Below are positions 7,304 to 60,117 of a stretch of DNA of 64,000 nt, piece after piece. Origin of the DNA: Escherichia coli. GTDB lineage: Bacteria > Pseudomonadota > Gammaproteobacteria > Enterobacterales > Enterobacteriaceae. Numbering within the stretch: position 1 is the stretch's first letter; every line of letters starts with the position of its first letter. The position numbers were made by a program, and so were the translations under genes. Under the pieces are notes generated by a model, which was not told the DNA's origin, did not search any database, and worked only from the letters and a program-made list of their open reading frames with translations. The stretch is taken from assembly GCF_050920415.1 (NCBI RefSeq), contig NZ_CP169309.1. One strand, written 5' to 3'.

Positions 7304-7401
7304 GCCGGATGCGGCGTGAACGCCTTATCCGGCCTACAAGATCGTGCAAATTCAATATATTGCATGAGCCATGTAGGCCTGATAAGCGTAGCGCATCAGG
7401 C
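7304..7401. repeat. BIME: inverted pair of REP elements, flanked by two copies of a ccgggcttaaacccgg hairpin (7253-7270 and 7426-7449)
   Basis: gccggatgcggcgtgaacgccttatccggcctac and inverted gtaggcctgataagcgtagcgcatcaggc; typical REP consensus. Confidence 0.85.
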
Positions 7402-12930: not shown

Positions 12931-13886
12931 TGAAGCAACTTTGGTTTGCCATGTCATTAGTGACAGGTAGCCTGTTATTCTCTGCTAACGCCTCGGCCAC
13001 TCCCGCGTCCGGGGCGTTATTACAGCAGATGAACCTGGCCAGTCAGTCACTGAATTACGAGCTGTCATTCATCAGCATCAATAAACAGGGTGTTGAGTCT
13101 CTGCGTTATCGACATGCACGCCTCGATAACCGTCCTCTTGCACAATTGTTGCAAATGGATGGCCCGCGCCGGGAAGTGGTACAGCGCGGCAATGAAATCA
13201 GCTACTTTGAACCGGGCCTTGAACCGTTCACGCTTAATGGCGATTACATTGTTGATTCTCTGCCATCGCTCATCTATACCGATTTCAAACGCCTTTCTCC
13301 TTACTACGACTTTATCTCCGTGGGACGCACGCGTATTGCTGATCGTCTTTGCGAAGTCATTCGCGTGGTGGCCCGTGATGGCACACGCTACAGCTACATC
13401 GTGTGGATGGACACCGAATCGAAATTACCGATGCGGGTTGATCTCCTTGATCGCGATGGTGAAACGCTGGAACAATTTCGCGTGATTGCTTTTAACGTTA
13501 ATCAGGATATCAGCAGCAGTATGCAGACGCTGGCGAAAGCAAATCTGCCGCCGCTGCTTTCTGTTCCTGTAGGTGAAAAAGCTAAATTCAGCTGGACGCC
13601 AACCTGGTTGCCACAGGGGTTTAGTGAGGTTTCCAGCAGCCGACGTCCGTTACCGACGATGGACAACATGCCTATCGAATCACGTCTCTATTCCGACGGA
13701 TTATTCAGCTTCTCGGTAAACGTTAACCGCGCTACGCCATCGAGCACCGATCAGATGTTGCGCACCGGACGCAGAACCGTCAGTACAAGCGTACGTGATA
13801 ACGCCGAAATCACCATTGTCGGCGAACTGCCGCCGCAAACGGCGAAACGCATTGCCGAGAATATTAAGTTCGGGGCAGCGCAATGA
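12930..13886 (+). CDS. rseB: Sigma-E regulatory protein RseB (periplasmic)
   Basis: 318-aa ORF with signal peptide, start overlaps rseA stop (TAATG). Confidence 0.95.
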   Translation: MKQLWFAMSLVTGSLLFSANASATPASGALLQQMNLASQSLNYELSFISINKQGVESLRYRHARLDNRPLAQLLQMDGPRREVVQRGNEISYFEPGLEPFTLNGDYIVDSLPSLIYTDFKRLSPYYDFISVGRTRIADRLCEVIRVVARDGTRYSYIVWMDTESKLPMRVDLLDRDGETLEQFRVIAFNVNQDISSSMQTLAKANLPPLLSVPVGEKAKFSWTPTWLPQGFSEVSSSRRPLPTMDNMPIESRLYSDGLFSFSVNVNRATPSSTDQMLRTGRRTVSTSVRDNAEITIVGELPPQTAKRIAENIKFGAAQ

Positions 13887-14362
13887 TCAAAGAGTGGGCT
13901 ACGGTCGTCTCCTGGCAAAACGGGCAGGCGCTGGTCAGTTGTGATGTTAAAGCCTCATGCAGCAGCTGTGCTTCTCGTGTCGGTTGCGGTAGCCGCGTGC
14001 TGAATAAACTTGGCCCACAAACCACGCATACCATTGTCGTACCCTGTGATGAACCGTTAGTGCCGGGGCAAAAAGTGGAATTAGGAATCGCCGAGGGCAG
14101 CCTGCTTAGCTCCGCATTACTGGTTTATATGTCGCCGTTGGTGGGATTATTCCTCATCGCTTCGTTATTTCAGCTACTCTTTGCTTCAGATATTGCAGCA
14201 TTATGCGGTGCGATTCTCGGCGGCGTTGGTGGATTCCTGATTGCACGCGGCTACTCGCGAAAGTTTGCTGCCCGGGCGGAATGGCAACCGATCATCTTAA
14301 GCGTGGCATTGCCGCCAGGCCTTGTGCGATTTGAAACATCTTCGGAAGACGCGAGCCAGTGA
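13883..14362 (+). CDS. rseC: RseC (SoxR-reducing system component-like membrane protein)
   Basis: 159-aa ORF, overlaps rseB stop; cysteine-rich N-terminus plus TM segments. Confidence 0.9.
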   Translation: MIKEWATVVSWQNGQALVSCDVKASCSSCASRVGCGSRVLNKLGPQTTHTIVVPCDEPLVPGQKVELGIAEGSLLSSALLVYMSPLVGLFLIASLFQLLFASDIAALCGAILGGVGGFLIARGYSRKFAARAEWQPIILSVALPPGLVRFETSSEDASQ

Positions 14363-14559
14363 TTTCACTGGCTTTGTTGCATTTTGCATAACAAATGCGA
14401 GGACGTTTCCAGATACCACAATCCATACCGTATGAACATTTCCTCGCCTCAATGTTGTAGTGTAGAATGCGGCGTTTCTATTAATACAGACGTTAAGCTC
14501 AGAACAGCGACTTCTAAAAGCCTGGTTAACCGGGCATTAAGGCACAATAATCATACTTT

Positions 14560-16359
<1,800 letters not shown>

Positions 16360-17400: not shown

Positions 17401-17591
17401 TATGAGATAAATCTCCCGTGGCTAACGACATCCCCCGTCGTTGTGTATAGAATATTCCCCCGAAGTTTAAGGTTGGCACCTCCAGGTTGCCACGGCACAC
17501 GAAACAGCGTTGGTCCCCATATACCGGTAAACTGAAACTGCAGCGAAGCAGTTAGCAGAGCCATGTATATCAGGTCTGTTTCGTGTGCTGA

Positions 17592-19204
<1,613 letters not shown>

Positions 19205-19215
19205 GAGTTACTCCG

Positions 19216-19944
19216 ATGGAAGGCTGGCAGCGCGCATTTGTCCTGCATAGTCGCCCGTGGAGCGAAACCAGCCTGATGCTGGACGTCTTCACGGAGGAAT
19301 CGGGTCGCGTGCGTCTGGTTGCCAAAGGCGCACGCTCTAAACGCTCTACTCTGAAAGGTGCATTACAGCCTTTCACCCCTCTCTTGCTACGTTTTGGCGG
19401 GCGTGGCGAAGTCAAAACGCTGCGCAGTGCTGAAGCTGTCTCGCTGGCGCTGCCATTAAGCGGTATCACCCTTTACAGTGGTTTGTACATTAACGAACTT
19501 CTCTCCCGCGTGCTGGAATACGAGACGCGCTTCTCTGAACTCTTTTTCGATTACTTGCACTGCATTCAGTCTCTTGCAGGTGCCACTGGTACGCCAGAAC
19601 CCGCGCTGCGCCGCTTTGAACTGGCACTGCTCGGGCATCTGGGCTATGGCGTCAATTTTACCCATTGTGCGGGTAGCGGCGAGCCGGTAGATGACACCAT
19701 GACGTATCGTTATCGCGAAGAAAAAGGGTTTATCGCAAGTGTCGTTATCGATAATAAAACGTTCACCGGAAGGCAGTTAAAAGCGTTAAACGCGCGGGAA
19801 TTTCCTGACGCAGACACACTGCGCGCCGCGAAACGCTTTACCCGCATGGCGCTAAAGCCGTATCTTGGCGGTAAACCATTAAAGAGCAGGGAACTGTTCC
19901 GGCAGTTTATGCCTAAGCGAACGGTGAAAACACATTATGAATGA
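19216..19944 (+). CDS. recO: DNA repair protein RecO
   Basis: 242-aa ORF, operon position downstream of era. Confidence 0.93.
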
Positions 19945-19955
19945 TGAGGATTGTC

Positions 19956-20687
19956 ATGGCTGAATTACTGTTAGGCGTCAACATTGACCATATTGCAACG
20001 CTGCGTAACGCACGTGGTACTGCTTACCCGGATCCGGTGCAGGCGGCGTTTATTGCTGAGCAGGCGGGGGCGGATGGCATTACCGTGCATCTACGTGAAG
20101 ATCGTCGCCACATTACCGACCGCGACGTGCGCATCCTGCGTCAGACGCTGGATACCCGCATGAATCTGGAGATGGCGGTGACCGAAGAGATGCTGGCGAT
20201 CGCCGTTGAAATAAAGCCGCATTTTTGCTGCCTGGTACCTGAAAAGCGCCAGGAAGTCACAACCGAAGGTGGCCTGGACGTCGCAGGGCAGCGTGACAAA
20301 ATGCGCGATGCCTGTAAACGTCTGGCGGATGCCGGGATTCAGGTTTCTCTGTTTATCGACGCCGATGAAGAGCAGATCAAAGCCGCGGCAGAGGTTGGCG
20401 CACCGTTTATTGAGATCCACACCGGTTGCTATGCCGATGCCAAAACTGATGCCGAACAGGCGCAAGAGCTGGCGCGCATTACGAAAGCCGCGACCTTTGC
20501 GGCAAGCCTCGGTCTGAAAGTTAACGCTGGTCACGGTCTGACCTATCACAACGTGAAAGCCATTGCCGCCATCCCTGAGATGCATGAACTGAATATCGGT
20601 CATGCCATTATTGGTCGTGCAGTGATGACCGGACTGAAAGATGCGGTGGCAGAAATGAAGCGTTTGATGCTGGAAGCGCGTGGCTAA
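19956..20687 (+). CDS. pdxJ: Pyridoxine 5'-phosphate synthase
   Basis: 243 aa from ATG 19956 ([21 protein letters not shown]...). Confidence 0.93.
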
Positions 20688-21067
20688 TGGCAATATTAGG
20701 TTTAGGTACGGATATTGTGGAGATCGCTCGCATTGAATCGGTGATCGCCCGATCCGGTGAGCGCCTGGCTCGCCGCGTATTAAGCGATAACGAATGGGAA
20801 ATCTGGAAAACGCACCACCAGCCAGTGCGTTTTCTGGCGAAACGCTTTGCCGTAAAAGAAGCCGCAGCAAAAGCGTTTGGCACCGGGATCCGCAATGGTC
20901 TGGCGTTTAATCAGTTTGAAGTATTTAACGATGAGCTTGGTAAGCCACGGCTGCGACTGTGGGGTGAGGCATTAAAACTGGCGGAAAAGCTCGGCGTTGT
21001 AAATATGCATGTAACGCTGGCAGATGAACGCCACTATGCTTGCGCCACGGTAATTATCGAAAGTTAA
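20687..21067 (+). CDS. acpS: Holo-[acyl-carrier-protein] synthase
   Basis: 126-aa [19 protein letters not shown]..., start overlaps pdxJ stop. Confidence 0.95.
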
Positions 21068-21084
21068 AATAATACCGTTCTCTT

Positions 21085-21170
21085 TAAAAAGTAAAACCCC
21101 CGAACTGGTAAGGAACGGGGGTTTTACTTTACAACTTTAATTTTGTGCAGCACGCACCCTCAATGAGAGC
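21085..21170 (-). ncRNA. ohsC: Putative OhsC antisense sRNA (antitoxin of ShoB); boundaries approximate
   Basis: Known shoB-ohsC locus between acpS and yfhL; segment 21145-21164 is a 19/20 direct repeat of shoB 5'UTR segment 21393-21412, so a minus-strand transcript here would pair with the shoB leader; terminator at 21091-21130 fits a minus-strand 3' end. Confidence 0.45.
21091..21130. terminator. Bidirectional rho-independent terminator (acpS on + strand; likely also ohsC on - strand)
   Basis: aaaacccccg-N14-cgggggtttt hairpin flanked by A-run upstream and T-run downstream. Confidence 0.7.
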
Positions 21171-21486
21171 GATTATGGATCAGTGTGGTTATCTTTTACA
21201 AGCAACTTGCAATCTTTAGTATAAAAACTCGAGCCTTGACGAAGAAATCGATATTGATGGAAAGATTAACGTGACCACCAATTCGTAAGTACATTAAAAT
21301 TGGCTTCGTTATTGGAGATTTTGCTGTGCTTTAAACCATATCACTGAATTCCCCCATTGAAACGAGTGGTGTCGTCAAAGCTCTGGTGTGGAGTGCAGCA
21401 TGCACCCTCAATAACTCGCACGTTCAGATTTGGGGAGATGTAAGGGCTAATCTTAACGGCTGCATTCCTTGTTTAAGGAAAAACGA

Positions 21487-21567
21487 ATGACTGATTGCCG
21501 ATACCTGATTAAACGGGTCATTAAAGTCGTCATTGCTGTTTTACAGCTGATCCTTCTGTTCTTGTAA
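21487..21567 (+). CDS. shoB: Type I toxin ShoB, 26-aa hydrophobic peptide
   Basis: atg act gat tgc cga tac ... ttc ttg taa = MTDCRYLIKRVIKVVIAVLQLILLFL; AAGGA SD 7 nt upstream; hairpin terminator at ~21585-21625. Confidence 0.85.
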   Translation: MTDCRYLIKRVIKVVIAVLQLILLFL

Positions 21568-21760
21568 CACCAGGAAACGTACTTAAGGCGCGTCAGGTTA
21601 ACCAGCCAGGCGCGCCTTTAATAATTAGACGTAAGTGTCGGCGTATATATTATCGGAATTCATTTAATGAATATATTCATTAATGATATTATGGAAATTA
21701 ATATATAACTTTCGCTTTTATACGAGCAAATAAGTAATATCCTGTTCATAGAGCAAAATA

Positions 21761-22057
<297 letters not shown>

Positions 22058-30361: not shown

Positions 30362-30548
30362 AGTGGCTCATTCACCGACTTATGTCAGCCCCTTCGGGAC
30401 GTGCTACATAAAATTCGAATGACGCACAACAAGGTGCCTGCCGTCCAACTTCTGATATCAGCTTAGCTATATCAACCCTCGGGCGAAACGTCGAGTTAGG
30501 CACCGCCTTATTCCATAACAAAGCCGGGTCATTCCCGGCTTTGTTGTA
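30362..30548 (+). ncRNA. glmY: GlmY small RNA (regulator of glmS via GlmZ/RapZ)
   Basis: Starts AGTGGCTCATTCACCGACTTATGTCAGCCCC as recalled for GlmY; ends at aagccgggtcattcccggctt hairpin plus U-rich tail; lies between purL and glrK. Confidence 0.8.
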
Positions 30549-60002: not shown

Positions 60003-60117
60003 AAGATAACAAGATATTAGAATCAGGCCGGGGCGTCTCGCGCTCCGTAAACACGGTCGTACATCCAGCCGGTAGCCTGGTTCCTTGCATTGAGTGATGT
60101 ACGGAGTTTATAGAGCA

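Follow-up and report, generated by a model that had tools for sequence, protein, structure and literature searches.

The locus described here, in a 64,000-nucleotide stretch of Escherichia coli DNA (hereafter the window), is with a probability of about 0.9 a chromosomal shoB/ohsC toxin–antitoxin system of type I, in which the first 20 nucleotides of the antitoxin RNA OhsC pair with positions 21393–21412 of the shoB leader and toxin synthesis is blocked. ShoB is a membrane-depolarising peptide of 26 residues, and the K-12 genes (shoB/ohsC, or ryfB/ryfC) reportedly go back to Kawano 2005 and Fozo 2008. Both the locus and the site of pairing have been described before, and the observation itself is confirmed; the allele in the window is a rare one of an otherwise ordinary locus.

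The genes occupy the spacer between acpS (stop at 21067) and yfhL (end at 21761). The 541-nt region examined is 100% identical to strain 2013C-4282, for which RefSeq gives the neighbourhood recO, pdxJ, acpS, shoB, yfhL and yfhH, and K-12 MG1655 carries ohsC (b4608) and shoB (b4687) at the identical acpS–yfhL site. Among complete E. coli genomes, 5,425 of 5,426 matched the locus, which was chromosomal in every case and always at the same acpS–yfhL site. Identity over the locus was at least 99% in 5 genomes, 95–99% in 476, 90–95% in 3,280 and 80–90% in 1,664, and on these sequence comparisons the variability of shoB/ohsC is unusual for a core-genome site. A divergent allele spans 19941–21640 of the window, with pdxJ–acpS 94% identical to K-12 as against 97.4% for yfhL–yfhH; this segment may be recombinant or introgressed. 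The AT-rich stretch from the shoB terminator to yfhL (21626–21760) is very poorly conserved among E. coli and differs almost wholly between the window and K-12. Elsewhere in the window, further Rfam matches above threshold were to AsrC, rncO, GlmY, the iscRS stability element and ES036, at 13847–14678 (minus strand), 17462–17676, 30362–30509, 60007–60116 and 7338–7380 (all plus strand).

The antitoxin gene lies at 21088–21164 on the minus strand, where the Rfam model RF02495 (ohsC_RNA) is covered from position 1 to 77 of 77 with a score of 104.8 bits, compared with a gathering score of 50, and where the sequence aligns to K-12 b4608. An earlier note on this DNA had anticipated a minus-strand RNA of about 60–90 nt running over the first of two repeat copies. 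Because RF02495 matches at full length at the terminator in question, that RNA is OhsC; it measures 77 nt by the model (79 nt in the K-12 annotation), and the repeat copy forms its exact 5′ end. The note had also placed a minus-strand terminator at 21091–21130. A hairpin is indeed present, with its boundary at 21088 instead: an inverted-repeat search returned a palindrome at 21088–21130 with arms at 21088–21102 and 21116–21130 that form 15 perfect base pairs around a 13-nt loop. This terminator sits 21 nt past the acpS stop and is probably bidirectional, serving acpS too. Its near-palindromic form, also remarked on in the 2024 survey PMC11264685, accounts for the 36.7 bits that the ohsC model scores on the plus strand (21063–21130). 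A simple terminator scan called neither the ohsC nor the shoB hairpin, whereas the repeat finder picked up both; the ohsC hairpin was missed because its 13-nt loop exceeds the 8-nt limit of the scan. A promoter scan placed the ohsC promoter at 21172–21201 on the minus strand (TTGTAA at 21201–21196, an 18-nt spacer and CATAAT at 21177–21172), giving a predicted start at 21164, 7 nt beyond the −10 box. At the level of the motifs, these hexamers are the same as in Table 2 of PMC11264685. Start sites for the window strain are assigned throughout from promoter motifs and from homology to K-12.

On the plus strand, the 26-codon hydrophobic open reading frame that the note had reported in the acpS–yfhL spacer, with its own Shine–Dalgarno (SD) sequence and terminator, is RefSeq shoB (21487–21567; WP_000128779.1 in the identical strain 2013C-4282). 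The encoded hydrophobic peptide of 26 amino acids, MTDCRYLIKRVIKVVIAVLQLILLFL, is identical to K-12 ShoB at 24 of 26 residues and similar at all 26, with V14 and V15 against I14 and I15 in K-12. The window peptide, with this valine pair, is identical to the ShoB of E. whittamii. No NCBIfam model scored the 26-residue peptide, a search that is uninformative at such a length. The SD sequence AAGGAA, read directly from the sequence at 21475–21480, lies 6 nt ahead of the ATG and is the 100%-conserved shoB ribosome-binding site of PMC11264685 (Table 2). Upstream, the promoter scan identified GTGACC, an 18-nt spacer and TAAAAT at 21271–21300, hexamers that again agree with that table as motifs. Counting from a start at about 21307–21308, placed from the −10 box, the 5′ untranslated region (UTR) is about 180 nt long (21308–21486). 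Downstream of the gene, an inverted repeat at 21580–21623 (arms 21580–21597 and 21606–21623, 78% complementary) forms the terminator hairpin, in which substitutions relative to K-12 largely keep the pairing in the alignment. In K-12, shoB mRNA occurs as a full-length species of about 320 nt and a 5′-processed species of about 280 nt, and translation is from the processed form only (PMC5668327); a second 5′ end has been found 41 nt downstream of the first (PMC5066626). By analogy, the processed, active 5′ end in the window strain should lie at about 21349, some 41 nt downstream. In K-12, both RNAs are expressed, and overproduction of ShoB is toxic, an effect relieved by OhsC, according to the part of PMC5668327 that cites Fozo 2008.

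The two genes are joined by a direct repeat. Positions 21145–21164 (GTGCAGCACGCACCCTCAAT) and 21393–21412 (GTGCAGCATGCACCCTCAAT) are identical at 19 of 20 positions and lie 248 nt apart, and their similarity is limited to these 20 nt, with no extension beyond. With two mismatches allowed, no third copy was found in the 64-kb window, and none appeared in 100 dinucleotide shuffles; the repeat that the note had described is therefore present at its coordinates and unique in the window. Copy 1, read on the minus strand as AUUGAGGGUGCGUGCUGCAC, constitutes the first 20 nt of OhsC and its antisense pairing segment, as indicated by the repeat search, by Rfam and by the published 5′-end pairing (PMC3919570). 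Copy 2, on the plus strand, is the OhsC target in the shoB leader; the note had put it about 75–95 nt upstream of the ATG, which is right as to location and becomes 75–94 nt with the coding sequence at 21487–21567. The predicted duplex, for the allele in the window, held up as described: 20 contiguous pairs, 19 of them Watson–Crick and one G–U, with an energy of −38.5 kcal/mol. The single wobble arises because copy 1 has C where copy 2 has T.

Passages of PMC3919570 and PMC2887945 that cite Fozo 2008 describe 19 nt at the OhsC 5′ end as complementary to the shoB 5′ UTR, and the two genes as divergent and non-overlapping. The same arrangement, which the note had invoked, is seen in the K-12 annotation and in the window, where ohsC and shoB diverge without overlap at a distance of 248 nt. 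An RNase III site has been found in vivo within the shoB/OhsC duplex region (PMC6212723). The site that the note offered as a prediction is the published site, and the finding was therefore already known; the prediction was correct, and natural compensatory variation, set out below, backs it, but it was not new.

We aligned loci from 11 complete genomes, 6 Escherichia species representatives and 84 metagenome contigs. A 20-nt segment could be extracted at both positions from 96 loci, among them one (L072) that has unrelated DNA instead of ohsC. At least 19 of 20 pairs are kept in all 95 loci with both segments and likewise in 11 further loci (106 in all). There are two major haplotypes. Haplotype A, the K-12 type, combines OhsC GUUGAGGGUGCAUGCUGCAC with shoB GUGCAGCAUGCACCCUCAAU, and haplotype B combines OhsC GUUGGAAUCGUGUGCUGCAC with shoB GUGCAGCACUCGAUUCCAAU. 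Each copy differs between the two at 7 of its 20 positions, and five pairs are compensated on both sides; haplotype B has one internal U–U mismatch in every copy examined. A and B diverge at 14 of 40 pairing positions and, in the rest of the transcribed sequence, at 7 of 385 columns (Fisher p = 3e-11); all 7 differences found within the leader (21353–21452) lie inside the 20-nt site. Over the OhsC:shoB duplex, the paired fraction of cells is 99.3%, and 5 pairs are doubly changed; none of 500 shuffles matched either the paired fraction or the doubly changed count, and slid controls were 21–49% paired. Cognate duplexes have energies of −32 to −39 kcal/mol, as against −17 to −20 kcal/mol for A/B cross-combinations. 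Among minor variants, the two copies differ at positions 9, 11, 13 and 20, and in each case ohsC has C and shoB has T, giving G–U; the reverse orientation, which would give an A–C mismatch, was never seen among the loci compared.

Pairing between OhsC and shoB is supported by this natural compensatory variation in the aligned sequences. The five doubly compensated pairs all trace to the single A/B split and may represent one evolutionary event. Because only 248 nt separate the two sites, the lack of A/B recombinants carries little weight on its own. Across the 5,426 complete E. coli genomes, haplotype A accounts for about 69% and B for about 31%: 1,693 genomes have the B-type ohsC end and 1,690 the B-type shoB site, and the A-type shoB site was counted in 3,721. 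The clean counts are those for B and for the shoB side, and the A-type ohsC census is too low because of flank variants. The allele in the window (A at OhsC nt 1 and G at nt 12) was otherwise seen only in L013, a locus labelled E. coli SCPM-O-B-8794 that stands as representative of a distinct GTDB species of Escherichia.

Both haplotypes occur beyond E. coli. Loci with flanks that match the type strain of E. albertii at 98.8–99.7% identity, and E. coli at about 89%, include A and B alike. In this comparison (loci L008–L011, L102–L107 and L021), acpS groups by species, with 99.2% identity within E. albertii and 90–91% between species. For the pairing segments, by contrast, the grouping is by haplotype regardless of species (B–B 97.5%, A–A 92.5%, A–B 62–70%), as it is for the promoter spacer (B–B 91.6%, A–A 95.8%, A–B 80–87%). 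With an exact 21-mer anchor, haplotype B of E. albertii had gone undetected, as had E. fergusonii, and E. albertii and E. whittamii had been truncated upstream. The E. albertii loci were obtained through that species' YfhL protein; the YfhL tried for E. whittamii is a common E. coli variant, and neither the 21-mer anchor nor the YfhL search yielded a complete E. whittamii locus. The pattern suggests either an old polymorphism common to both species or exchange between them. Tentatively, and at slightly under even odds, we propose that single-copy shoB/ohsC consists of two old specificity alleles, predicted not to cross-react, that form a trans-species polymorphism under balancing or diversifying selection. 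Part of this two-allele picture may already be contained in Fozo 2008 or Fozo 2012.

The repeat has also been a route to loss. One locus (L113, CP078557.1) has an exact 248-nt deletion between the repeat copies, which leaves a single hybrid copy; the two promoters are lost, together with roughly the first 85 nt of the shoB leader. At least 24 complete E. coli genomes (hits H37–H60), several ETEC O6:H16 strains among them, contain this junction in one 68-nt piece, and the upper bound is 81 genomes. The repeat caused this 248-nt deletion of both promoters. Two other loci depart from the usual arrangement in different ways. In L072, a B-type shoB leader and open reading frame are joined to unrelated DNA inside the 5′ UTR, upstream of the equivalent of 21356, without ohsC; the join may stem from an insertion or a rearrangement, or the contig may be an assembly chimera. 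In strain EC96 (NZ_CP060748.1, hit H15), only the first 94 nt of the query match, comprising ohsC and its −10 region, and EC96 may be among the antitoxin-only strains that PMC11264685 mentions.

As to how OhsC would silence shoB, the most likely mechanism, to which we give even odds and which folding supports in part, is a four-element structural switch like that of dinQ/agrB that closes the SD sequence. Kristiansen et al. 2016 (PMC5066626) had already put forward a dinQ-like model for shoB. As long as the mRNA is full-length, element 1 (21322–21338) would hold element 2 (21384–21400), and the anti-SD UUCCUU (21465–21470) would then close the SD, which serves as element 4. After 5′ processing, element 2 would capture GCUGCAUUCC (21459–21468) and the SD would be freed. 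OhsC binding at 21393–21412 would remove element 2 again and allow the SD hairpin to re-form. All four elements lie on the plus strand. Only in the full-length mRNA is element 1 predicted to pair with element 2, with a duplex energy of −20.9 kcal/mol in the window and −27.1 kcal/mol in K-12. Element 2, for which elements 1 and 3 would be alternative partners, extends over the first 8 nt of the OhsC target. Element 3 (21459–21470, GCUGCAUUCCUU), which includes the anti-SD, can form 10 bp with element 2 (−19.3 kcal/mol) or 6 bp with the SD (−5.5 kcal/mol). The predicted helices are mutually exclusive and rank in the order 1:2 (−20.9 to −27.1), 2:3 (−19.3) and 3:4 (−5.5 kcal/mol), and 7 of the 10 nt in the 2:3 duplex fall within the OhsC site.

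Folding of the window allele reproduced this scheme, with a mean probability of the SD being unpaired of 0.22 in the full-length mRNA (from 21308), 0.87 in the processed form (at about +41) and 0.09 when the OhsC site was masked. In RNAfold, the corresponding values were 0.23, 0.21 and 0.18 for the K-12 allele and 0.13, 0.08 and 0.08 for a haplotype-B allele. The switch is therefore not robustly predicted, because the K-12 and B alleles keep the SD closed when processed. In all three alleles, the cost of opening the OhsC site falls upon processing (17.2 to 6.9, 20.0 to 7.3 and 11.7 to 9.2 kcal/mol), which fits OhsC acting on the processed mRNA, whether through the switch or through a ribosome standby site. 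Comparison of 29 UTR haplotypes showed the element 1:2 helix paired in 99.4% of cells, with one-sided changes only. Across the alternative helices, 99.4–100% of cells are paired and 7 pairs have one-sided, pair-preserving changes, including four transitions in E. albertii haplotype B; the shuffle control is uninformative here (500/500). No doubly compensated pair was found in the alternative intramolecular helices among the haplotypes compared. The switch would account for the near-invariance of the site's first 8 nt (GUGCAGCA), when the remainder is replaced between haplotypes. At 21334, the window has a C-to-A change that is absent from the other 99 aligned loci and breaks one element 1:2 pair, shifting the duplex from −27.1 to −20.9 kcal/mol; it could leave the full-length mRNA of the window strain less tightly closed.

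A different account, possible but clearly less probable than the switch, is that OhsC acts on shoB as IstR-1 does on tisB, by occupying a single-stranded ribosome standby site that is needed as the SD is locked in a hairpin. The SD is indeed predicted to lie in a stable UUCCUU/AAGGAA hairpin, whose central pair has a probability of 0.59–0.98 in five of six unmasked folds, and the OhsC site, 75–94 nt upstream of the ATG, is placed much as the standby site of tisB is, at about 100 nt (PMC7708055). Cheaper opening of the site after processing, common to all three alleles, is as this account expects, and reviews have suggested the possibility (PMC4147584). Yet the site is not predicted to be open, with a mean unpaired probability of 0.31–0.45 in processed forms, and 12–13 variable nucleotides within it are wholly different between haplotypes, so that a conserved standby sequence is not evident; according to PMC5668327, no standby experiment on shoB has been reported. 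It is unlikely, in turn, that destruction of the mRNA is the main effect, with the 20-bp duplex serving as an RNase III substrate whose cleavage removes a part of the leader needed for translation. The duplex is long enough to be such a substrate, the in vivo cleavage site falls in the shoB/OhsC duplex region (PMC6212723), and the related zorO–OrzO and tisB–IstR-1 duplexes are cleaved (PMC4147584). However, for the related tisB, dinQ, zorO and bsrG, repression persists without RNase III or needs no cleavage (PMC5066626, PMC3919570), and haplotype B persists in about 31% of genomes despite its internal mismatch.

Both of these accounts, like the switch, take the pairing as given. That the repeat is instead a neutral duplication remnant or a product of gene conversion, with no role in RNA pairing, is very improbable, and we reject it. 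Its copies are close, direct and on the same strand, and they do recombine, as the 248-nt deletion attests. Against neutrality, a curated sRNA model has its 5′ end exactly at copy 1, and substitutions cluster in the two segments (p = 3e-11). At four of the five sites where the copies differ, the difference is oriented, ohsC having C where shoB has T, which gives G–U, and the orientation that would yield A–C was never seen. Homogenisation by conversion is disfavoured because fixed differences between the copies persist, at position 20 in most genomes and at position 10 in all B haplotypes. The data thus already contradict a neutral repeat.

For the finding as first given, little is at stake: a published gene pair and its pairing site were correctly re-identified from raw sequence. 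The 2024 survey (PMC11264685) noted the variability of the locus, and the adequacy of pairing could not yet be assessed there. The cross-genome comparison makes a modest addition: it answers this open point, in that the OhsC of each genome remains able to pair with the shoB of that genome even though the pairing region varies heavily, and it adds natural compensatory evidence for a pairing that the literature surveyed describes only as predicted. [quoted passage not shown]

Set beside known systems, the locus in the window agrees with K-12 shoB/ohsC in site, gene order, orientation, promoter hexamers, the target sequence on the shoB side and pairing through the OhsC 5′ end. Its OhsC differs in having A for G at nt 1, which turns a terminal G–U into A–U, and G for A at nt 12, which turns an A–U pair into G–U. 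With dinQ/agrB it shares a divergent sRNA gene, a long 5′ UTR, an inactive full-length mRNA and an active 5′-processed one. Antitoxin binding to element 2 of dinQ lets the anti-SD close the SD, a scheme that folding alone reproduces for the window allele; the two systems have no sequence homology, and the shoB scheme is a prediction that is absent from the K-12 and B-allele folds. [quoted passage not shown] Finally, zor/orz is often multicopy, with a variable pairing region that is thought to prevent cross-talk, whereas shoB/ohsC is single-copy and yet has a dimorphic pairing region.
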